Below are positions 2,502 to 35,090 of a stretch of DNA of 64,000 bases, in pieces. Origin of the DNA: Escherichia phage vB_EcoM_VR25; sequence record NC_028925.1; one strand, written 5' to 3'. Position 1 is the first letter of the stretch. Each line of letters begins with the position of its first letter. The notes beneath the pieces were generated by a model that saw only the letters and a program-made list of their open reading frames with translations, was not told the DNA's origin and ran no database searches. The translations under genes were made by a program, and so were the position numbers.

Positions 2502-2753
2502 TTAATCCTTGGGAGTTAACTCAATTGTAAAATATAGATTAGCATTATCCACATGATAACGGTAATCAACGTTATTATCCGGTGAAGTAAATTCCAGATT
2601 CCGGACGTTTAAAGGGTCGATATCAATTGGAAGACCTTTTATGTCTCGCAGATAAAGTTTAATGAAATATGGGAGCGCTGTAAAGTCTTCCTCGATTTTA
2701 TCTAAAAAATCGGTAATATCAAATTGATGTTCCATATAAAAAATCCAAATCAC
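2502..2753 (-). CDS. Hypothetical protein, 83 aa (start may be an internal Met)
   Basis: Track ORF immediately downstream of gene 55; 5-prime end overlaps the gp55 stop. Confidence 0.4.
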
Positions 2754-3276
2754 CTTCTTTATCTTTGGCGCTCTTATCAGACCCTGGCGCTTTAACTAAG
2801 GAGGATTCGTACTGTGTCATTTTGTCATAGATGTCCTGGATAAATGTTTCGTCAGCCAGAGCCACCATATCGTCGTCACGTGAATCATACACGTTATGGA
2901 CGAAGTAGCTATATTTCTTTGCCATTTCTTTACGTTCTTTTTTGATACGCTGAACGAAAGCATTGAAGCAAGCCATTGTTATGTAAGCATGTGGATTATC
3001 GTATTTTGTTTCGTCGAAGTTATGAAGACCTTTTATTGCGGCCTCAATTCCGTCCGCTATCATTTCCTGCTTCCAAGATTGGGTATATCCTGAAAAGTTG
3101 AAACGTTTAGACAGACCTTCGGCTATAAGCATAATTGCCAGACCAATAACATCGTTCTGGCGAATAATTTTATTTGGGTCGGTGTTCGCATTCAGCTTCT
3201 GTTTCCACTCCGAAATAGCTTTCAGAAGCTCTTTATTATTTACATAGTTATTCTTGGTTAATTTAATTTCGTTCAT
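2719..3276 (-). CDS. 55: Late-transcription sigma factor gp55
   Basis: 185 aa, ATG start; ...[35 protein letters not shown]... nearly identical to T4 gp55 over most of its length. Confidence 0.95.
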
Positions 3277-25819: not shown

Positions 25820-26083
25820 TTACGCTTTACCGCCAGAAACAATACCAAAGGTCTCAAAGTCCCATTCAATATCGTCAACATCAACTTTCTTACCAGCAAC
25901 CACAAATGCGATTTCGCGACGTTTTGCATAGGTAACAATTTCTTTGCCATCGCCGCCAAAGAAAGAATAACCATTGCGCTTCATGGTGCCAAAGTCTTCA
26001 GCATCACCAGCGAAGGCACGGACTTTAAAAGCACCAGTAGGAGCTTTAGCAGATTCAGTAATAAATTCTTGATAAGTTTTCAT
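25820..26083 (-). CDS. Internal-protein-like protein with CTS, 87 aa
   Basis: Starts MKTYQEFITE; ATG start. Confidence 0.65.
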   Translation of the reverse strand: MKTYQEFITESAKAPTGAFKVRAFAGDAEDFGTMKRNGYSFFGGDGKEIVTYAKRREIAFVVAGKKVDVDDIEWDFETFGIVSGGKA

Positions 26084-26096
26084 AATGTCTCTTTAG

Positions 26097-26411
26097 TTAA
26101 GCTTTAGGGAAATCGCGCAAAAACGCATCATAAAGTTTATTACCAATGCGACGGAATGCTTTTGCAGCATGAACGTTATCTGGGTTTGCAATTTTAATCT
26201 GCATTACATGACTACCAGCCCATGATTTAGCTTCGTCATAATAACCTTTAATTTCTTTAATAGTCTTGCGTTTTCCACCAGGACCATCAACAGTAATTTT
26301 CCACGAACCAGTGCTTGTTTCACTTGGTGGGGTTAACTGTTCAATCCAGACATAACCACCTTCAACACGTTGTTGAGTAGATTCAGTAATAAATTCTTGA
26401 TAAGTTTTCAT
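26097..26411 (-). CDS. Internal-protein-like protein with CTS, about 104 aa
   Basis: In-frame MKTYQEFITE at 26411 (track ORF starts 4 codons earlier); preceded by TATAAT and leader. Confidence 0.6.
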   Translation of the reverse strand: MKTYQEFITESTQQRVEGGYVWIEQLTPPSETSTGSWKITVDGPGGKRKTIKEIKGYYDEAKSWAGSHVMQIKIANPDNVHAAKAFRRIGNKLYDAFLRDFPKA

Positions 26412-26458
26412 TTTATATTCCATGTTTGGTTGATAAAATCATTATACAACCTTTTTAG

Positions 26459-26934: not shown

Positions 26935-27216
26935 TTATTTTGTGGAAGCAGCCGAGATATATTTTTCAAGACGCTGTTTCATCAGCGAGCCGTTCTTAGC
27001 GATTTCTTCCGGTTTATCGCACATACGCAATAGAGCTTCAAGCTTAGTGATATCAGATGTCCGCTCAAATTTGCGAGTATCTACCTTACTAGCAAGTTCG
27101 GAAATACGCGCTAACAGACTTTCGGCTTCTACCAAAGCTGTGCCCAGCTTAGTTGCAAATGCGTCAGTAGCTTCATTAAGAGTGGTCACGGTCAAAAATT
27201 CATTATAGGTTTTCAT
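26935..27216 (-). CDS. Internal-protein-like protein with divergent CTS, 93 aa
   Basis: Starts [10 protein letters not shown]...; ATG start; 3-prime to gene e as ipIII is in T4. Confidence 0.55.
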
Positions 27217-27697
27217 ATACTTTCCAAGTTCCTGTTTTAAATGTTGAGATTACACGTTTCGCTCGATTAGGTGTTTGTTTGTACCATTTGGATTGAGCCA
27301 GGTTAACAGCAGCTTCGTCCCAACGTTTCTGTTGAAGCAACCGAAGGGAGTTAGTAAACCCAGCAACGCCGGCTTCACCCATTTGGAAGACCATATTAAT
27401 CAGGGCACAGCGACGAACTTCGTCAAGACTATCATACACTGGTTTTAATTTAGCATTACGCATAACACTCGCACGTGCTTTTTCCACTGAACGGTTAAAC
27501 AAGGTTTCAGCTTCAACCTGGGTAATCCTACCGTTGCAGACGCGACCCATGAGCTTGTCGAGCTCGGCACGAGCAACATCTTTCGATGGGTTCTTAGTTA
27601 TCAGTTGCCCGATACCGATGGTCCAATATCCTTCGGTATCTTTATACAAATCCAACTTACAACCTTCATCTATGCGTAACATTTCGAATATATTCAT
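27203..27697 (-). CDS. e: Lysozyme (endolysin) gp e
   Basis: 164 aa, ATG start; [12 protein letters not shown]...[13 protein letters not shown]... very similar to T4 lysozyme. Confidence 0.95.
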
Positions 27698-27698
27698 A

Positions 27699-27726
27699 AT
27701 ACCCCCTTATATAGGGGTATTTATTA
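27699..27726 (-). promoter_or_regulatory. RBS-sequestering hairpin of gene e with embedded late-promoter-like TAATAAATA
   Basis: Stem ATACCCC/GGGGTAT encloses the G-rich SD just before the ATG at 27697; TAATAAATA overlaps the 5-prime arm. Confidence 0.6.
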
Positions 27727-28185
27727 TCCGAAAATTTGAGTCAAAACCTTGTACATCGATTTACCCATTACGTATTGCCATTGACTCGGTTTAATCAGAG
27801 CGAAAGCATCAAACTCTGGGACCGAACTACCATCCGGGAAGGTATGATATGCGGAGCATTTACTATGTCTGAATTGCTCATGCTCGACCGGGACCGTGTA
27901 CAAAAACAGGTGAAGGTTTTTGTTATCTGAATAACGGAACTCGCCTAGGTCTTTTAAGAATGCCGGGTCATACCGGGTAAAGCCTGTTTCTTCTTCACAT
28001 TCACGCATAGCTGCTTCAATCGGGGATTCACCGGCTTCAACATGACCCTTAGGGATATCCCATTTATGCGCAGGCATACCCGGTTTGCGAGAACCAGTCA
28101 CACGACCCATGAATAACTCTTTATCTTCAGTCATGAAAATAATGCCAGCAGATAATTCTTTCACCACGTTTTTCTTACTCATCAT
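27724..28185 (-). CDS. nudE: Nudix hydrolase NudE
   Basis: Nudix box GHVEAGESPIEAAMRECEEETGF; first ATG at 28185 gives about 153 aa (T4 NudE about 151 aa); track ORF extends upstream. Confidence 0.85.
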   Translation of the reverse strand: MMSKKNVVKELSAGIIFMTEDKELFMGRVTGSRKPGMPAHKWDIPKGHVEAGESPIEAAMRECEEETGFTRYDPAFLKDLGEFRYSDNKNLHLFLYTVPVEHEQFRHSKCSAYHTFPDGSSVPEFDAFALIKPSQWQYVMGKSMYKVLTQIFG

Positions 28186-28411
28186 CACGTTCCCAAGATT
28201 TTTTAAAGATTTCAGCCATAATAATTTCAATACGTGTTTCTGTTGATGGTGATTCACTATCAGAAGTTTGAACTCTGTAATCGGAAATTGGTCGGAACAT
28301 ATCCAAGTCACTTTCCAAATCTTCTTTTATTTTCTCTTCTGATGTTCCAGTATCATAGGAATACAGATAAGAATCACATGACTCAGATTTAATATAAATT
28401 GCAATACTCAT
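28175..28411 (-). CDS. Hypothetical acidic protein, 78 aa
   Basis: Track ORF; Ser/Asp/Glu-rich. Confidence 0.45.
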   Translation of the reverse strand: MSIAIYIKSESCDSYLYSYDTGTSEEKIKEDLESDLDMFRPISDYRVQTSDSESPSTETRIEIIMAEIFKKSWERDDE

Positions 28412-28995
28412 TTACGGCATTCCTCAATAAAAGAATTTAATGTATTTTTCTTAGCGATATCGTCGTATACCTTTTTAACTTTAGAAATACGAAAAGGTAC
28501 TTCAATAGTCATAGTCCATAAAAATGATGCAATAAGTCCAACAGCAGCAGAAGAAATGCACGCGCCCATTACAGCCACGGGGGCTTCATTTTTACCTGTC
28601 AAGAAAAACAACAGGATTGGTAAAAATAAGATTCCAGACCACGCATAAAACCTGGAACAAATTAACTTATCAAATTCATCTTTCCAGGTACGAAATCCAT
28701 ATTTCTTGCTATAAGAAATTAATGGGTCGGGTGTCTGTTCTTTGAGTGGTTCTGGTTGCCAGCCATTTACGATATAGCCCATTCTGAACTCCTTAATTAA
28801 AAGCTCTTTCATATTATAGTTGCAACCGGACCAATCTACCGTACTAGCTGCAATTCCTTCATCACCATCATCAAGATTCCGCCAGGACTTTTTAATAATC
28901 ATATTCTCACCACTTGGGATAATAATTCCAGCATTTTCTGACCTACGGATGAAGTTTGCATCAATGCCCATACACCCGGGTTCATAAAGGGCCAT
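28408..28995 (-). CDS. Membrane protein, 195 aa, C-terminal FIEECRK motif
   Basis: ATG start; two hydrophobic helices near residues 110-165; C-terminal ...NSFIEECRK resembles the FIKEC family at 32.8-34.1 kb. Confidence 0.5.
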   Translation of the reverse strand: MALYEPGCMGIDANFIRRSENAGIIIPSGENMIIKKSWRNLDDGDEGIAASTVDWSGCNYNMKELLIKEFRMGYIVNGWQPEPLKEQTPDPLISYSKKYGFRTWKDEFDKLICSRFYAWSGILFLPILLFFLTGKNEAPVAVMGACISSAAVGLIASFLWTMTIEVPFRISKVKKVYDDIAKKNTLNSFIEECRK

Positions 28996-29684
28996 TACCA
29001 GCCCTCCATAGGGAATTCCAGATATACTTGAGCGTTAACGCGGATTTCATTTGTAATCTTTTTAACACGGTCGGTATTACGAGACACACGACCAAACCAG
29101 CGCCAACCGTTACCAACTGTTTTCGTTCCAGTGTGCCAGGTCTGCCAGTTGAATTCACACAACGTGCGGTCAGGAGCTTCTTGAACTAAAAGTTCACCTG
29201 CCTTGATTTTTTCCAGAACTTCCTGGTGCCACCGGCGATAGATAAGTTCGCCATCAGGAATCTGACTGAATTCTGAAGTTCCCAGAGCAAAATTAGTAGG
29301 GCAAACAGAAGCGTTAACCAGACCCAGGATGTGTTCAGAATGGTAACGAGGGTTATCATAATCAGGTTGTCCTGCTGTAATAAAATGTTGTCCTGCTGGA
29401 ATATCTGGACGTGGTACATCATCATGGTGGAACCCTGGAATAGCAGGATACCAGCCAGGCATTAACATGTGGACACGGGAATCAAATACAATATCAGGGC
29501 CACATTGCCAATCTTCAGGCAGGTTTTCAATAAAGCTACGAGTAATAGGACCACCGTGTTTATGAGCAAAATAAGCATCGCAATTAAAGAACATAGGCTC
29601 ATTTTTGATTTGGTCATTACTGATATCTTGAGCAAATTGGCCAACTTCACGCATTTTACTATTAAAAGTTTTTGAGCTATTCAT
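28995..29684 (-). CDS. Possible Fe(II)/2-oxoglutarate-dependent oxygenase, 229 aa
   Basis: ATG start; candidate facial triad HHD (in PGFHHDDVP) and a distal His in WHTG about 100 residues later, followed by RVS (possible RxS); motif reading only. Confidence 0.35.
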   Translation of the reverse strand: MNSSKTFNSKMREVGQFAQDISNDQIKNEPMFFNCDAYFAHKHGGPITRSFIENLPEDWQCGPDIVFDSRVHMLMPGWYPAIPGFHHDDVPRPDIPAGQHFITAGQPDYDNPRYHSEHILGLVNASVCPTNFALGTSEFSQIPDGELIYRRWHQEVLEKIKAGELLVQEAPDRTLCEFNWQTWHTGTKTVGNGWRWFGRVSRNTDRVKKITNEIRVNAQVYLEFPMEGW

Positions 29685-29743
29685 AATATTTTCCTCATTG
29701 ATTGTGGGACCATTGTGTCATAGTCCCACTTGGATGTACACAC

Positions 29744-30703
29744 TTATTTTGAAAAAGGTTTAATCAAATGTTGGTTAGCCTTGAAACGTTTAACATAGTC
29801 TTCGCGACCCAGGGTGTTGTACATATTAACCACTTCCTGGTAATGTTCCCAGGCATACTCACGGAACCATCCAGAAGTAATGGAGGTACAGACTTTTTCT
29901 AGTGCAATATGGAAGCTCACGGATGGAGATATATTGAACTCATTAGGAACCTGCGAACGCTCCAGAGCAAGTACACATGCTTCTTCATAAACCCCTGCCA
30001 GTTTAATAACATCAGGAAGTGCTTCAAATTTTTCACGTGAGGTCATGACTTCTGAATCATCCTTCATATAGAACTTATATGCAGGCTTATCAGCAAGCGC
30101 CACGGCCTCGTGGATGGAGTCATGGTCAAGGGTATAGATTGTATCATTAAAGAAAGTTTTCTTGCCCACGTCTAGTTTAGGGTGACTATATGACAGTGTT
30201 TCTGTCTGACGTTGTAACATAATTTTCTGCAGTTCATCATTAAGAACAACACCCTTATTACGAAGGTAATTAATATGGCTCATGGTCTTCAGGAAGAATG
30301 GATTGTTCTTCAGGTAACGATGAGACAATTTAATTGCCAGACAAATATCAGGGGTCGCCCAATAAAAACCAGATAGACGGTCTTTCTGAATATTTGCCTT
30401 CGCATATTTGAGCAGACGATAACTGGAGGTAAAATCTTCCTCTTGTAGCTCATCAGTCAACTCACGAACACTTGTCAGGGCGCGGACGATATATGCTTCA
30501 AAATAGGTTTCTTTACCGTTGTGCATACACTTAAAAGCTTGCACATCTGGGTTATCCACATGAACATGCTGCCCCATCATCTGGGTTTTAAAGCTGTTCC
30601 AGGAACCCTGGTCAGCGATAAAATCCCAATCAGAGTTTTCAATTTTCTTACTTTCAATCAGACCGGCGTTATGTAACGCGCGAGAACCAATAACTAACAT
30701 CAT
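29744..30703 (-). CDS. Hypothetical protein, 319 aa, weak NTase-like N-terminal motif
   Basis: ATG start; N-terminal VIGSRALHNAGLIESKKIENSDWDF (GS ... DxD with a longer-than-usual spacer); family not recognised. Confidence 0.5.
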   Translation of the reverse strand: MMLVIGSRALHNAGLIESKKIENSDWDFIADQGSWNSFKTQMMGQHVHVDNPDVQAFKCMHNGKETYFEAYIVRALTSVRELTDELQEEDFTSSYRLLKYAKANIQKDRLSGFYWATPDICLAIKLSHRYLKNNPFFLKTMSHINYLRNKGVVLNDELQKIMLQRQTETLSYSHPKLDVGKKTFFNDTIYTLDHDSIHEAVALADKPAYKFYMKDDSEVMTSREKFEALPDVIKLAGVYEEACVLALERSQVPNEFNISPSVSFHIALEKVCTSITSGWFREYAWEHYQEVVNMYNTLGREDYVKRFKANQHLIKPFSK

Positions 30704-30724
30704 AATATTTTCCTCAGAATTAAA

Positions 30725-30961
30725 TTAAATGTCCCAGCGGGCGCTATCATATTCATCCCATAGAGCTTCATGGGAGTTACAAACGATAGGAGCAATGACT
30801 CCGTTAATATCTTCGTTGTAAGGGCAGATAGTACAAAATGCATCTTCGAAACGAACATTGTAATCAGACTTCTTATACGCGATGTCAAAAATCTTTTTAA
30901 ACTTTTCACGAGTAATGGTTTTAGCAACCACTTCAGTACCAATACTTTCGTAATAAATCAT
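30725..30961 (-). CDS. Hypothetical Cys-containing protein, 78 aa
   Basis: Track ORF; preferred over the overlapping low-complexity alternative frame 30700..30942. Confidence 0.4.
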   Translation of the reverse strand: MIYYESIGTEVVAKTITREKFKKIFDIAYKKSDYNVRFEDAFCTICPYNEDINGVIAPIVCNSHEALWDEYDSARWDI

Positions 30962-30971
30962 GGTTATCTCC

Positions 30972-31172
30972 TCAGATAGGACCGTAAAGGTATGTCCAAC
31001 GTTTAACGAAAGAAACTACTTCTTCCAAGGTATCGCAAACCTCTGTAGTGCCCGGAACGCCATCGCCACTGATGGTTACTTTAATGCCATCTGAAACTTC
31101 CTGGAGATTAACCTCCAGTTGGTTGGCTTTGGCTTCGTTCAGAACTTTGATTAATTCGTTTGCGATAGACAT
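30972..31172 (-). CDS. Hypothetical acidic protein, 66 aa
   Basis: Track ORF. Confidence 0.4.
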   Translation of the reverse strand: MSIANELIKVLNEAKANQLEVNLQEVSDGIKVTISGDGVPGTTEVCDTLEEVVSFVKRWTYLYGPI

Positions 31173-31236
31173 TTTTATTCTCCTGTTCTGATAACGTGAT
31201 TGTCATCAGTTGATAAGAGAATAGTAACATGGTTTT

Positions 31237-31581
31237 CTAGAGTTGTATACCACTTCTGCAATATTCTAAAAATAATTTATTGTTGTCTACTGTATCCCAC
31301 CGGCGCCAAGATGAATTCCAGACCAAAGCATTATCACCACAATCGTTAAGCTTGAAATGGTCGTAATACATAGCTATACGCTTGGTCTCGTCAGCGGAGA
31401 ATCCTAATATAGACTCGCCATGAGTATGGTACATATGGTGATGCATGGAGAGGTCGCATTTATAAAACGTTTCACGCTTACCGCGGACGAACAAGAATGC
31501 TTGTCCATCCATATAAAATTCTTTATCTGTTTTTAAAAGATATTTGAATACTGAATCTCTGTGCATAGGTCCTCCTATCAC
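31237..31581 (-). CDS. Hypothetical His-rich protein, about 109-114 aa
   Basis: Track ORF; contains HHHMYHTHGE. Confidence 0.4.
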   Translation of the reverse strand: MIGGPMHRDSVFKYLLKTDKEFYMDGQAFLFVRGKRETFYKCDLSMHHHMYHTHGESILGFSADETKRIAMYYDHFKLNDCGDNALVWNSSWRRWDTVDNNKLFLEYCRSGIQL

Positions 31582-31596
31582 ATCCTTGTGATAATT

Positions 31597-31821
31597 TTAG
31601 CAGCTGCTCGGGTACCAGATTTTACCATCCGGGTGAGCAACAAAGGTGCGTCCAGCTTCTTCGCCATAACAAGAGCTATTCAACCAGTCTTCAAGACGAA
31701 CTTCACCATCATAATCGTCGAGCTCAATACCGAAATCTTGAGCAGAAGCCATATCTTTAACTTTCTTATACAACGCAGCCAGTTCAAGAGCTGCTTTTTC
31801 TAATTCATTAATATCAGACAT
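31597..31821 (-). CDS. Small acidic protein, 74 aa, C-terminal ...WYPSSC (family member 1)
   Basis: ATG start; ends in Cys; shares C-terminal W-x-x-SS-Cys pattern with the four ORFs upstream. Confidence 0.5.
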   Translation of the reverse strand: MSDINELEKAALELAALYKKVKDMASAQDFGIELDDYDGEVRLEDWLNSSCYGEEAGRTFVAHPDGKIWYPSSC

Positions 31822-31830
31822 TTTTATTCC

Positions 31831-32058
31831 TTAGCAAGACATAGAGGAGTTAAACCAGAAACCTTTACCTTCTGGGATACCATAATCACCGTGAATCCAG
31901 TCATATTTTTTATATTCTGGGCTGCCCGCAGGAATATATCGCTGAAGACTGTCAGCATATACATGAAAGTATTCACCAGTTTTATCGGCCAGCTGTTCAC
32001 CTTCACAGATTAGTGCACGGATTTGGTCTTCAATTTCTTTAACAGTTTTAGTAGTCAT
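31831..32058 (-). CDS. Small acidic protein, 75 aa, C-terminal ...GFWFNSSMSC (family member 2)
   Basis: ATG start; stop TAA then GGAATAAAA and the next ATG. Confidence 0.5.
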   Translation of the reverse strand: MTTKTVKEIEDQIRALICEGEQLADKTGEYFHVYADSLQRYIPAGSPEYKKYDWIHGDYGIPEGKGFWFNSSMSC

Positions 32059-32066
32059 TTATTTCC

Positions 32067-32264
32067 TTAGCATTCGTAAGAGGAGGACACCCAAGAGGTA
32101 CCGCTAATAGTAATGCATCCATTATAAAGCGTGATATGCCTGTCTAAGTCACGAACACCGCTAATATAGATATCAGCTTCTTCACGTTCTTCTTTACAAA
32201 TCTGGATAACATTTTCAATAGCCGCTTTAGCGGTACGGATTGCACAATCTAATTCACGAGACAT
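32067..32264 (-). CDS. Small acidic protein, 65 aa, C-terminal ...SWVSSSYEC (family member 3)
   Basis: ATG start; stop TAA then GGAAATAA and the next ATG. Confidence 0.5.
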   Translation of the reverse strand: MSRELDCAIRTAKAAIENVIQICKEEREEADIYISGVRDLDRHITLYNGCITISGTSWVSSSYEC

Positions 32265-32273
32265 AATATTTCC

Positions 32274-32555
32274 TTAACATTCAGCAGAAGAGGACACCCA
32301 ACCACCTTCTGCAAGGTCTGTGGTGTAGTCATGTTGGTTAACAATAGCATATTGGGCTTCACCGTAGTTTTCCCAATGTTCAAGGTCAGCTTTCAGGGCG
32401 CCAGGAGAATAATAGTCACCGCCCATACCGCGAGCAGGGTATATATTAAAATGAGTCTCATATTTGTCTGCAATTTCCTCAGCGCGACGAATAGCTTCAT
32501 GGATTTCTTTTACTGCGGCCAGAAGCTCTGGTTGGTTATGGTTATCATTCATCAT
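32274..32555 (-). CDS. Small acidic protein, about 93 aa, C-terminal ...GGWVSSSAEC (family member 4)
   Basis: ATG at 32555 (MMNDNHNQ...) just after the upstream stop; track ORF extends further at an alternative start. Confidence 0.5.
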   Translation of the reverse strand: MMNDNHNQPELLAAVKEIHEAIRRAEEIADKYETHFNIYPARGMGGDYYSPGALKADLEHWENYGEAQYAIVNQHDYTTDLAEGGWVSSSAEC

Positions 32556-32556
32556 A

Positions 32557-32847
32557 TTAACACATCTCAGAAGAGGAGACCCAAGCACCAACGGTAACAA
32601 CCCCATTTTCAACTTTTCCACCGTTGGCTTCAATATGATGGGTAAACCATTCAGAGCATTCATAACCGACTGGGTGGTATGTACGACCTGTGCCGTAATC
32701 GCCGGTGCTGAATTCAATGCCATATTCATCAGCGATTTCTTCACAATGTGTTTCAATTTCAGAGGTCTTATTTAGAAGAGAATAGATAGCTTTTTCTGCA
32801 GATTTCTCATCATAATACTTAGGGATAGCGATTTCAATTTTATTCAT
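32557..32847 (-). CDS. Small acidic protein, 96 aa, C-terminal ...GAWVSSSEMC (family member 5)
   Basis: ATG start; same C-terminal motif. Confidence 0.5.
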   Translation of the reverse strand: MNKIEIAIPKYYDEKSAEKAIYSLLNKTSEIETHCEEIADEYGIEFSTGDYGTGRTYHPVGYECSEWFTHHIEANGGKVENGVVTVGAWVSSSEMC

Positions 32848-33290
32848 GATTTACATTCCTTAATAAAGGTTTCAAGGTCATTACGTTTTGTTTTGTTCAG
32901 GAACTTATTATACTCAGCCATTGCCAAAGCGTATCTCTTACGGATGGGAGCATTCAAGGCGTTTGTGTAACAGATATCATACACAACCGGGATAAAATAG
33001 GCCACAACAGCCGGAGCAATTATCATAAAGAAGCCCATCTCAATAGGCATGACTCCCTCGATTGCAGCCATAACCGTTGTCATTACCAGGCCAACCAGGC
33101 CACCGAGCATAGCGGTGGCAATCCCTAATAATAAATTGGCACCAATATCATATTCAGCCAATTGATAAACATGTGATGCAAGACTAGGCCGTTCCATTAC
33201 GAACCTCCTTGATAAATTCTTCTGCACATTTAATTTTGTGCTCTTTTTGTAGGGAAACGCATTTTTGTTCCCACTCTTTAACTCGACCAC
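32844..33290 (-). CDS. Membrane protein, up to 148 aa, C-terminal ...ETFIKECKS
   Basis: Two hydrophobic helices; real start probably the internal Met near 33197 (MERPSLASH...). Confidence 0.45.
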   Translation of the reverse strand: MVELKSGNKNAFPYKKSTKLNVQKNLSRRFVMERPSLASHVYQLAEYDIGANLLLGIATAMLGGLVGLVMTTVMAAIEGVMPIEMGFFMIIAPAVVAYFIPVVYDICYTNALNAPIRKRYALAMAEYNKFLNKTKRNDLETFIKECKS

Positions 33291-33567
33291 GATATCCTTT
33301 ATTCATATGATTTTGATGCCACACATTTATCAATATCATACTCAGGACTGTAATAAAAGGAGCTGCAATTATTAGTGCCCAGGCGACTCCAACACTAATG
33401 ATATTCATATCCCCACAAAGCACCATCATTATAACCCCAACGATGCACATGGACAGAGCTCCAAATGGAGGCATAAGGTCTTTATCAATCTTGTCTGCGT
33501 ACACAAATTTTTCTGGTTTACCTGGCAGATATAACGTTCGCATTTTGAACCCCTTTAGCGTATTCAC
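33184..33567 (-). CDS. Membrane protein, up to 127 aa, C-terminal ...EEFIKEVRNGTA
   Basis: Two hydrophobic helices; start may be the internal Met MRTLYLPGKPEK. Confidence 0.45.
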   Translation of the reverse strand: MNTLKGFKMRTLYLPGKPEKFVYADKIDKDLMPPFGALSMCIVGVIMMVLCGDMNIISVGVAWALIIAAPFITVLSMILINVWHQNHMNKGYRGRVKEWEQKCVSLQKEHKIKCAEEFIKEVRNGTA

Positions 33568-34072
33568 GGCATTCTTTAATAAAACGATTAAGCTTACGCT
33601 GCTGTTTACGACTTTCTAATGTATATTCGTCGGCCAAAATAGTAAGCTCATCTTTATCGTAATTTTTAATATCAGAGTAAGATGGTCTACGGTCAACCAT
33701 TCCAAATACATCGCCATTTTCTAGCGCTACATAACATACTAAATGGTAATCATCATCTGCTATATTAAGAAGCACACAATCATCGCTCTCGTTTAACGCA
33801 TACACAGAATAGCGTAATCCAGCGAATTCCACTCGTTGAATACCCAGATTTACATCAATAATTTCCAAGGCATCTGCGAAAGAAAGGTCTTCAGCTAAAG
33901 CAAAAATAAAAGGCAATTTTGTAGTATCGCCACGGCTAGTTGTTCTTCTTAAGAAATCATTGGAATAACCCAAGTCACCGCGGATTCTGTAAAGAACTGT
34001 ATTAGTTTCAGTAGCAAGGCCACTACCGCCAAACCAGTCTACATTTGATATAAGGTCAGTATATAAGCTCAT
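33518..34072 (-). CDS. Hypothetical protein, about 184 aa, C-terminal ...NRFIKECREYAKG...
   Basis: ATG at 34072 (MSLYTDLISN...) preceded by GGGAGAGGAG SD just after a hairpin; acidic, no hydrophobic helix. Confidence 0.45.
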   Translation of the reverse strand: MSLYTDLISNVDWFGGSGLATETNTVLYRIRGDLGYSNDFLRRTTSRGDTTKLPFIFALAEDLSFADALEIIDVNLGIQRVEFAGLRYSVYALNESDDCVLLNIADDDYHLVCYVALENGDVFGMVDRRPSYSDIKNYDKDELTILADEYTLESRKQQRKLNRFIKECREYAKGVQNANVISAR

Positions 34073-34092
34073 AATTTTCTCCTCTCCCAATT

Positions 34093-34109
34093 AGGGGGCA
34101 AAGCCCCCT
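34093..34109 (-). promoter_or_regulatory. Intercistronic GC hairpin between the PspA-like gene and the next ORF
   Basis: AGGGGGC-AAA-GCCCCCT between the stop at 34115 and the SD of the ORF starting at 34072; U-run is on the plus-strand side. Confidence 0.4.
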
Positions 34110-34114
34110 TTATC

Positions 34115-34708
34115 TTACTTAAGTGAATTGATGTATTCTTCAATGTCAGCGGATGTGGTATCCACACCAACCTGTGGACCTTTGAAGGTTTCAACACGCA
34201 TCAGAGTGTCTTCAATATCAATCTTAGTCAATGCAGCGATTTCAACAACATCATCTGCGGTTGCAATACCTAGGGCAGACACCTTACGGGTTTCGCGGAT
34301 GTATTCCAGTTTAACAGCTAGTTCCTGACGAGAGTCATCCAGCTCTTTAACTTTCAATTTAATTTCATTACGCATTTCAACATAATCATCTGCCTTCTTA
34401 CGAAGTTGTTTAGCAGTGCGACGATACAGGAGACCCAGTTTAGCATGGACCTGGACATCAGCACCATCAGCAATCAGTTTACGAATTTCACGCTCTTTTG
34501 AAGCGGCGAGCTGGTCTTTTTCATTCGCTAACTCGCGGATGCGTTTTTCTTCATTAACAGACTTAACGTGGGCAGTCTGGAGCTCAGTAATCTTGTCAAT
34601 CAGGGTAGAAGCCGCTTTAGTATATTGGTCTTCAATAGACAGGTTTTGTGCCATTGCAGTACCCAGTTTGGAGCGGATGAATTCAACAAGTTTCTTTAAA
34701 GTATTCAT
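34115..34708 (-). CDS. PspA/IM30-like coiled-coil protein, 197 aa (tentative)
   Basis: ATG start; long heptad-like helical sequence of PspA-like length; assignment from composition, not a verified match. Confidence 0.35.
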
Positions 34709-34784
34709 GGTATTTCCTTCAGTTGGTTAATGTTTTATTATCCAGGGAACATACTATCATGTTCCCGTTAAAGCGTACACTGAT

Positions 34785-35090
34785 TTAGATTTTATTTTCC
34801 TGCACACCATAGTAAAGTTCATCAGACACGATATTCAGGATGCGGCGAACATATTCATCATGGTAACGACATTCAAAATCAAATTCAACTGTAGTTTCTG
34901 CTTCACGAGTAAACTTAACAACCACATTCAGGTGGTTAACAACTTTAGTAAAGCTGTCAGTAAAGAATTCTTTTGCTACTGCTTGTTGTACTTGTACTTT
35001 GAACTTAGTGTTGCGAATCATGTTTTCAGCTGATGCGAAATTACCAGTTTTATCAAAGTCAACAAGCGCCAGGTTGATGATGAATTTCAT
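34785..35090 (-). CDS. Hypothetical protein, 101 aa
   Basis: Track ORF, ATG start preceded by the conserved leader. Confidence 0.45.
   Translation of the reverse strand: MKFIINLALVDFDKTGNFASAENMIRNTKFKVQVQQAVAKEFFTDSFTKVVNHLNVVVKFTREAETTVEFDFECRYHDEYVRRILNIVSDELYYGVQENKI

Follow-up and report, generated by a model that had tools for sequence, protein, structure and literature searches.

The stretch analysed here (the window) is 64,000 nucleotides of Escherichia phage vB_EcoM_VR25 (NC_028925.1), a T-even-type phage whose nearest relatives are the Gapriverviruses CJ20 and SP18 (~90% nucleotide identity over 28300-31300). Our subject is a pair of neighbouring open reading frames (ORFs) on its minus strand, ORF1 and ORF2, which we propose are two accessory enzymes independent of each other, part of a gene string of early/middle type and inserted between T4-like e.2 and e.3. 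The explanation that we favour overall, and think probable, is that ORF1 is an oxygenase acting on its own account and that ORF2 is a nucleotidyltransferase (NTase) working with a set of small proteins that end in a cysteine; limited adjacency and differing distributions are the reason for treating the two enzymes as independent. A first-pass annotation of the window had noticed both ORFs and read them together as a hydroxylase/transferase pair. That observation was real and its interpretation half right, and the most interesting part of the locus lies just outside the interval that it had singled out. Both ORFs are where it had placed them, on a strand that it had not given:

ORF1, 28995..29684, minus strand: 229 amino acids (aa); putative divergent Fe(II)/2-oxoglutarate (2OG)-dependent oxygenase; phrog_1843; no Pfam family
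ORF1 predicted sites: metal triad H86, D88, H184; 2OG-binding R199 (plus R195)
ORF2, 29744..30703, minus strand: 319 aa; proposed divergent Pol-beta-fold nucleotidyltransferase; probable start 30700
ORF2 N-terminal domain: DUF7277, residues 2-101 (G6-S7, D25-x-D27, E69)
ORF2 C-terminal helical domain: DUF7275, residues 120-305 (K125, H128, R129, H194-D195, H198, E240-E241, E248-R249, others)

ORF2 and its Cys-tailed partners

We propose that ORF2 is a Pol-beta nucleotidyltransferase built of two lobes, with an architecture like that of MenT. The class follows from the Pol-beta NTase fold, an alpha/beta fold, in combination with an invariant GS...DxD...E, and on both counts the earlier guess of an NTase, made from the opening MMLVIGSRAL...SDWDF that we also find, is supported. 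The catalytic signature reads I-G6-S7...D25-W-D27-F...E69, and among 78 relatives G6, S7, D25 and D27 are each 99% conserved, E69 94% and K125 100%. In MenT, the C-terminal motifs III (Lys) and IV (Asp) complete the active site together with motifs I and II (PMC7450476). K125 lies 98 residues past D27, compared with 102-109 for its counterpart in MenT3 and MenT4; the candidates for a motif IV equivalent, D193 and D195, lie 68-70 residues past K125 rather than 15-22 as in MenT, and their placement is tentative. An alignment of 41 sequences shows 59 invariant positions in the C-terminal half of ORF2, an unusual degree of constraint, and nothing in the PDB resembles this half structurally; a PDB profile search with ORF2 returned only noise (best, the RNase L KEN region, E = 0.34). 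The only Pfam matches of ORF2 at E <= 1 are DUF7277 and DUF7275 (254 and 96 bits against a gathering cut-off of 27), both of which are carried by all listed homologues; a literature search on these two domains and on the RB69 ORF names found nothing. As homologues begin MLxIGS, translation probably starts from the second ATG, at 30700.

What is conserved alongside ORF2 is a tandem run of Cys-tailed small proteins, one to five in number. In the window these form an array at 31597-32847, on the minus strand, of five proteins of 65-96 aa, each ending W-x-S-S-x(0-2)-C-stop:

Small protein A, 32557..32847, minus strand: 96 aa; ends GAWVSSSEMC; phrog_899; first of the tandem Cys-tailed family
Small protein B, 32274..32555, minus strand: ~93 aa from the ATG at 32555; ends GGWVSSSAEC
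Small protein C, 32067..32264, minus strand: 65 aa; ends SWVSSSYEC; phrog_4882
Small protein D, 31831..32058, minus strand: 75 aa; ends FWFNSSMSC
Small protein E, 31597..31821, minus strand: 74 aa; ends IWYPSSC; internal motif copy WLNSSC

The evidence for the linkage is comparative, and comes from 80 viral loci seeded from relatives of ORF1 and 80 seeded from relatives of ORF2, each with 8-kb flanks, which were searched with profiles of both proteins. Clustering places the Cys-tailed family on the ORF2 strand, upstream of that gene, in 69 of the 80 ORF2-seeded loci. When the tail is counted as W-x-[STNA]-S-x(0-3)-C at the end of an ORF, it terminates 175 of the 9,501 ORFs in these loci, and 165 of these 175 are upstream of ORF2, on the same strand and within 3.1 kb; two control sets yielded 1 in 6,058 ORFs and 0 in 1,797. 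Such ORFs are present in 71 of the 80 loci (73 with a slightly relaxed motif) at 1-4 copies per locus; in 20 loci fewer than 150 bp separate the end of the nearest copy from the start of the NTase, the median gap being ~350 bp. Within the window the motif is restricted to the array at 31.6-32.85 kb, it is absent from the 62 kb of T4 examined, and in RB69 three tail-motif proteins stand just upstream of ORF134c, the ORF2 orthologue (locus 1523-2167).

The Cys-tailed proteins range from 52 to 172 aa (median 87) and have in common an N-terminal helix, a frequent A-D-x-x-G-x-x-F...Y-G-x-G-x-T-Y-Y-P core, and the tail. The five copies in the window are too diverged to find one another by BLAST, yet each has orthologues elsewhere, and so they appear to be ancient paralogous subtypes. 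Neither Pfam nor the solved structures offer a match to them, their PHROGs are of unknown function, and no paper describing them was found. The linkage itself is old, since the loci include rV5-like phages and jumbo-phage contigs of more than 350 kb in which ORF2 is 38-45% identical. The NTase with its Cys-tailed proteins thus appears to be a conserved unit that is undescribed in the literature searched, and a variant of the theme of an NTase with a small upstream partner. Three further small ORFs intervene between the array and ORF2 and are lineage-specific; all belong to PHROGs without known function:

Lineage-specific small ORFs, 30725..31581, minus strand: 31237-31581 (114 aa), 30972-31172 (66 aa), 30725-30961 (78 aa)

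The last of these, at 30725-30961, was considered as a cognate antitoxin or as part of the conserved module and rejected, being found in only 14 of the 80 ORF2 loci.

The main rival explanation for ORF2 sees it and the small proteins as a toxin-antitoxin-like unit of the MenAT/AbiE kind; ORF2 would add nucleotides to the 3' ends of tRNA and block host translation, and the small proteins would restrain or time its action. We consider this unlikely. Although the proposed architecture of ORF2 is MenT-like, no AbiEii/DUF1814 (PF08843) hidden Markov model (HMM) matches it, its motif IV equivalent is ambiguous, and the PADLOC defence models give no match. MenT1, at 195 aa, has nothing equivalent to the large and extremely conserved DUF7275 extension, and a simple antitoxin role would not account for partners that come as one to five ancient paralogues sharing an invariant tail at the C-terminus.

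ORF1 and its possible substrates

We take ORF1 to be a divergent Fe(II)/2OG oxygenase on the strength of a predicted double-stranded beta-helix (DSBH, cupin-like) core and an invariant HxD...H...R, which together bear out the oxygenase guess of the first-pass annotation. An exhaustive profile search identified 736 family representatives, of which 96, 31-54% identical to ORF1, were aligned; only nine columns are invariant in these relatives (G84, H86, D88, H184, R195, R199, R215, G228 and W229), and they include H86, D88 and H184, which are invariant also in 33 close relatives. H184 lies on the strand 183-186, and R195 and R199 on the strand 193-202, R199 being 15 residues past H184; these strand positions of H184 and R199 are canonical for a distal histidine and a 2OG-binding arginine. 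The strings on which the guess had been based are all present (PGFHHDDVP at 83-91, WHTG at 183-186 and RVS at 199-201, with 98 residues between H86 and H184). Read as 'HxD, distal His and RxS', they hold in respect of H86, D88, H184 and R199, but the serine of RxS, S201, is invariant only in close relatives. Given that the acidic ligand, an aspartate, is retained, ORF1 would be a hydroxylase-type enzyme and not a halogenase.

The top ten structural matches of ORF1 are all small-molecule enzymes of the PhyH type. Two caveats attach to the assignment: no curated oxygenase HMM in Pfam matches ORF1 at E <= 1, and the HxD loop was modelled at lower confidence. Fold modelling and profile searches had been suggested from the outset as checks, and they divided, the beta-helix fold being found, while the PhyH and 2OG-FeII_Oxy profiles gave no match above the gathering score. 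NCBIfam and PADLOC returned nothing meaningful, PDB profile searches with alignments of close and of distant relatives returned noise only, and no fused domain was recognised in longer members of the family. Bridging through the 96 distant members brought one of them to PhyH, weakly (E = 0.068). ORF1 would therefore work like a PhyH-type enzyme without being a member of that Pfam family (PF05721), as no curated oxygenase HMM matches it. The labels 'phytanoyl-CoA dioxygenase' and 'nucleotidyltransferase' in GenBank record PQ341120 were not used as evidence; the annotation of that record is visibly unreliable, with 'ovule protein', 'malate synthase' and 'transposase' assigned to tiny ORFs. In both cases the enzyme class makes the ORF a new member of a known superfamily, as was partly anticipated by the UniRef name of a close homologue and by one GenBank record.

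With regard to substrate, the most suggestive context comes from the 58 ORF1 loci without ORF2. Their sole recurrent neighbour is nicotinamide phosphoribosyltransferase, NAMPT (PF04095+PF18127), found in 10 loci; it overlaps ORF1 or lies within 144 bp of it in 5 loci, and within 1 kb in 7:

NAMPT-type ORF1 loci: L033, L040, L060, L061, L067, L073, L076, L077, L080, L081 (also L184, L175)

Genes for NMNAT-Nudix (NatV-like), phosphoribosyl pyrophosphate-synthetase-like (Prs-like) and small Nudix proteins are found close by in these loci. The ORF1 proteins concerned share only 44-68% identity, and the other neighbours differ. Sets of Nampt-like, Prs-like and NMNAT-Nudix genes of this kind constitute the published NARP1 and NARP2 pathways of NAD+ counter-defence, in which there is no oxygenase. 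However, ORF2-only loci, taken as a control, have NAMPT within 8 kb at the same frequency, if never closer than 1.4 kb, and so part of the signal is accessory-gene clustering. All 24 'cellular' copies of ORF1 in ~185,000 genomes are flanked by phage replication genes.

These neighbours raise the possibility that ORF1 assists, as an auxiliary enzyme, in phage NAD+ reconstitution or in counter-defence, acting on a pyridine- or ADP-ribose-related metabolite, and that its nearness to nudE is a remnant of this. The direct abutment of NAMPT, the recurrence of the arrangement in L184 and L175, the correspondence of the gene sets to NARP1 and NARP2, and a set of conserved arginines that would suit an anionic ligand all speak for it, but it concerns a minority of loci, the paper on the NARP pathways names no oxygenase, and no chemistry of NAD+ salvage obviously needs a 2OG oxygenase. 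The window, moreover, contains no NAMPT, NatV or Prs, with nudE as its single NAD-related gene. A link between ORF1 and Nudix proteins was rejected, the proximity being confined to the T-even nudE synteny block, and NARP3 (PnuC+NadR), checked as a home for ORF1 and ORF2, proved unrelated. We therefore treat the association with NAD+ salvage as a lead and not a conclusion, and the explanation built on it as doubtful.

Two of the NAMPT-type loci have a further gene just downstream of the ORF1 relative: in L076 (8646-9632) it encodes a different Pol-beta-like NTase, with a weak PF14792 match and an FGDIDIL motif, and in L060 (8668-9669) an RNA ligase (PF09414). Both are possibly RNA-repair genes of the RlaP/ligase kind. 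The neighbourhood of oxygenase and NTase thus recurs in L076 with a non-homologous NTase.

A different suggestion is that ORF1 modifies macromolecules of host or phage, either as a protein hydroxylase of the prolyl or arginyl type or as an AlkB-like nucleic-acid repair enzyme. The uniformly small-molecule character of the top ten structural matches argues against such enzymes, as do the want of any sequence-level match to those families and of an evident nucleic-acid-binding extension in a protein of 229 aa, and we think the suggestion improbable.

ORF1 and ORF2 as neighbours, and the question of DNA modification

The adjacency of ORF1 and ORF2 is a lineage-specific gene order and not the mark of a working pair; this follows from the limited number of loci concerned, variable spacing, distant placement in some genomes, and genera that appear to have one gene only. 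ORF2 lies within 8 kb of ORF1 in 22 of the 80 ORF1-seeded loci, all from enterobacterial or Aeromonas T4-like phages, and ORF1 within 8 kb of ORF2 in 23 of the 80 ORF2-seeded loci, with gaps of -16 to ~2,000 bp; three Aeromonas-phage contigs that carry both have them 40-130 kb apart. The families differ in size and range. ORF1-like genes occur in 470 GenBank phage records and ORF2-like genes in 730, corresponding to ~1,500 and ~2,000 protein clusters at 90% identity. Phages of Acinetobacter, Pseudomonas, Vibrio and Streptomyces are found among the ORF2 matches and are absent from the ten most frequent organisms of the ORF1 matches; Mycobacterium phages show the reverse pattern, being found among the ORF1 matches and absent from the ten most frequent organisms of the ORF2 matches.

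The hydroxylase/transferase pair of the first-pass annotation had been offered as a candidate for a nucleic-acid or protein modification other than that of T4, on the premise that this phage lacks the alpha-glucosyltransferase gene (a-gt) at its usual site. The premise is correct. Gene 47 (677-1684) and gene 55 (2734-3276) are separated by ~1 kb, compared with ~3.1 kb holding a-gt, mobB and a-gt.2-5 in T4, and a-gt has no match anywhere in the window. Neither b-gt nor gene 42 is in the window, and their T4 positions would lie outside it. It is also true that Gapriverviruses are reported to have no known base-modification enzymes and yet to encode homologues of DenB, Alc, DenA and dCTPase, from which an unknown enzyme has been suggested (PMC8056088), and that phage 2OG dioxygenases acting on DNA bases, of the TET/JBP type, exist. 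Nevertheless, that ORF1 and ORF2 together make a DNA modification in place of glucosylation is very improbable: the genes are adjacent in a minority of loci and their organism ranges differ, no TET/JBP structure is among the 60 best structural matches of ORF1, neither gene is in the polymerase-uvsX region where the modification genes of T-even phages cluster (PMC8056088), and both occur in many genera besides Gaprivervirus. Their carriers, which include RB69, Aeromonas, Klebsiella and rV5-like phages and actinophages, differ in DNA chemistry, and so the two genes do not explain a modification specific to Gaprivervirus; RB69 has orthologues of both, and its cytosine modification is accounted for by a ThyA homologue and arabinosyltransferases (PMC13326640). 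The 5-hydroxycytosine biosynthesis to which that ThyA homologue belongs was itself checked as a home for ORF1 and ORF2, and is unrelated. What survives of the original proposal is protein modification, in altered form and for ORF2 only, through the linked Cys-terminated proteins; the DNA part does not.

Gene order, expression signals and flanking genes

The genes form a uniform minus-strand string, in transcription order the small ORFs, ORF2, ORF1, an e.2-like membrane protein, a 78-aa ORF, nudE and the lysozyme gene e. In RB69, where ORF134c corresponds to ORF2 and ORF132c to ORF1 with one extra gene between them, the block ORF132c-139c is likewise located between e.2 and e.3. Earlier, the interval had been called an expanded post-nudE region with two ORFs not recognisable from T4. 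The description is accurate, since T4 has only e.2-e.8 here, and no relative of either protein was found in the T4 e-segB interval or in the first 50 kb of T4. The landmarks on the downstream side are:

e.2-like membrane protein, 28408..28995, minus strand: 195 aa; phrog_2203; annotated e.2 in SP18, Bp7 and RB69
nudE Nudix hydrolase, 27724..28182, minus strand: landmark bounding the expanded post-nudE region

The start codon of the e.2-like gene overlaps the stop of ORF1 (TAATG), and it is therefore probably translationally coupled to ORF1. The longest ORF across nudE (27724-28311, GTG start, 195 aa) starts far upstream of 28182, where the conserved nudE ATG lies, and runs into the 78-aa ORF at 28175-28411 (phrog_2900; minus strand); public annotations differ on this start, with the long form in CJ20 and the short form in EAWsc9.

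A strong ribosome-binding context, GAGGAAAATATTATG, is common to ORF1 and ORF2, and the 59-nt spacer that parts them contains one structured element:

RNA hairpin, 29704..29729, minus strand: 10-bp stem, 6-nt loop; arms GUGGGACUAU/AUGGUCCCAC

This folds at -17.3 kcal/mol (z = -2.2 relative to shuffled sequences). With no T-run after it, it does not qualify as a typical intrinsic terminator, and may instead be an element of mRNA processing or stability. The T4 late promoter TATAAATA is absent within ~8 kb of both genes, and its counts across the window are at chance level. At 27000-35000, sigma-70-like promoter matches are under-represented (12, against 21.7 +/- 5.0 in shuffles). Over the same interval, terminator-like sites consisting of a hairpin and a T-run are over-represented (16, against 6.1 +/- 2.1).

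Two further sets of related proteins were observed in the vicinity. Four minus-strand proteins, predicted membrane or unknown, have a motif at or near the C-terminus resembling FI(K/E)E(C/V)(R/K): 28408-28995, 32844-33290, 33184-33567 and 33518-34090, the copies being NSFIEECRK, ETFIKECKS, EEFIKEVRNGTA and NRFIKECREYAKG. This suggests that a second paralogous family (e.2/e.3/e.4-like) flanks the inserted block. Nearer to denV, three small minus-strand proteins (25820-26083, 26097-26423 and 26935-27216) have MKTYQEFITE or MKTYNEFLT at or near their start, an N-terminus that resembles the capsid-targeting sequence of the T4 internal head proteins. They sit around denV, where T4 has ipII and ipIII; the set of injected internal proteins in this phage is therefore probably a different one.

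Proposed mechanism and significance

In the mechanism that we propose for ORF1, H86, D88 and H184 would hold Fe(II), and R199, on the last strand of the beta-helix, would hold the C5 carboxylate of 2OG. Oxidative decarboxylation would produce a ferryl species, with which ORF1 would hydroxylate or otherwise oxidise its substrate, probably something small and anionic. An anionic small-molecule or nucleotide-type substrate, as opposed to DNA bases, is inferred from the conserved R70, R92, R195 and R215 and from the repeated adjacency to NAD+-salvage genes.

ORF2 would move a nucleoside monophosphate from a nucleoside triphosphate to a hydroxyl acceptor, with D25, D27 and E69 for the metals and K125 contributed by the second lobe, and its partners in this would be the small proteins, from one to five, whose genes lie immediately upstream. 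The likeliest acceptor or docking element would be the invariant W-x-S-S-x-x-C tail of these proteins. This is proposed by analogy with MntA, a minimal Pol-beta NTase reported to adenylylate HepT, the product of its neighbouring gene (PMC7641770). Alternatively, the small proteins may regulate ORF2 as MenA antitoxins do. A more specific version, in which ORF2 covalently nucleotidylylates the invariant tail serines of several paralogous partners or uses the terminal cysteine as a carrier arm, would represent an undescribed system, widespread in T4-like, rV5-like and jumbo phages; we put it forward speculatively, as an unlikely outcome. For both enzymes a role in host takeover or counter-defence may be supposed.

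The ORF1 and ORF2 families are large, phage-restricted and hitherto without assigned function, and their carriers include many phages proposed for therapy. Each now has a testable biochemical identity, and a tempting but wrong link to DNA hypermodification has been removed. The real conserved unit is defined as an NTase and one to five Cys-tailed small proteins, searchable by a simple sequence signature, while the repeated and fusion-like adjacency of ORF1 and NAMPT suggests that the NAD+ counter-defence loci of phages include an accessory step so far unrecognised. Should either lead prove correct, it would add a new enzyme activity to the repertoire of phage takeover or anti-defence; nucleotidylylation of the tails, in particular, would make a phage-encoded post-translational modification of a new kind, serving host takeover or counter-defence. 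If neither does, these are two ordinary, divergent members of well-known enzyme superfamilies.

Comparison with known systems

MenT/AbiEii, among the closest known systems, differ from ORF2 and its partners in several respects. ORF2 has DUF7277 and DUF7275 in place of a PF08843 match, and an extra, highly conserved C-terminal region of ~150 residues. Its partners are unrelated to MenA/AbiEi (they match no known antitoxin), comprise one to five ancient paralogues and end in the W-x-S-S-x-x-C tail. An antitoxin is encoded upstream of MenT/AbiEii, and conserved small proteins upstream of ORF2; MenT/AbiEii belong to cellular defence and toxin-antitoxin loci, whereas ORF2 is encoded by lytic phages. 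The comparison with HepT/MntA is one of analogy only. The partners of ORF2 are not HEPN RNases, the proposed acceptor is serine rather than tyrosine, and gene order and partner copy number differ.

For ORF1, Nampt-like, Prs-like and NMNAT-Nudix genes, of the kind that make up NARP1 (Adps+Namat) and NARP2 (Nampt+Nmnat), are found beside its relatives in 10-11 divergent loci; the published pathways do without an oxygenase, and the window carries only nudE. The TET/JBP 5-methylpyrimidine dioxygenases of phages are, like ORF1, phage-encoded Fe(II)/2OG dioxygenases, but their substrates are DNA bases and their genes stand with those of methyltransferases or glycosyltransferases, a gene context that ORF1 lacks; none of them is among its 60 best structural matches. 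The closest likeness is to the PhyH-type oxygenases (EasH, EctD, AusE, AsqJ and SnoK; PF05721) that are its best structural matches; they share with the predicted ORF1 structure the beta-helix fold and HxD...H triad, an arginine on the last strand ~15 residues past the distal histidine, and a helical insert between the core strands.

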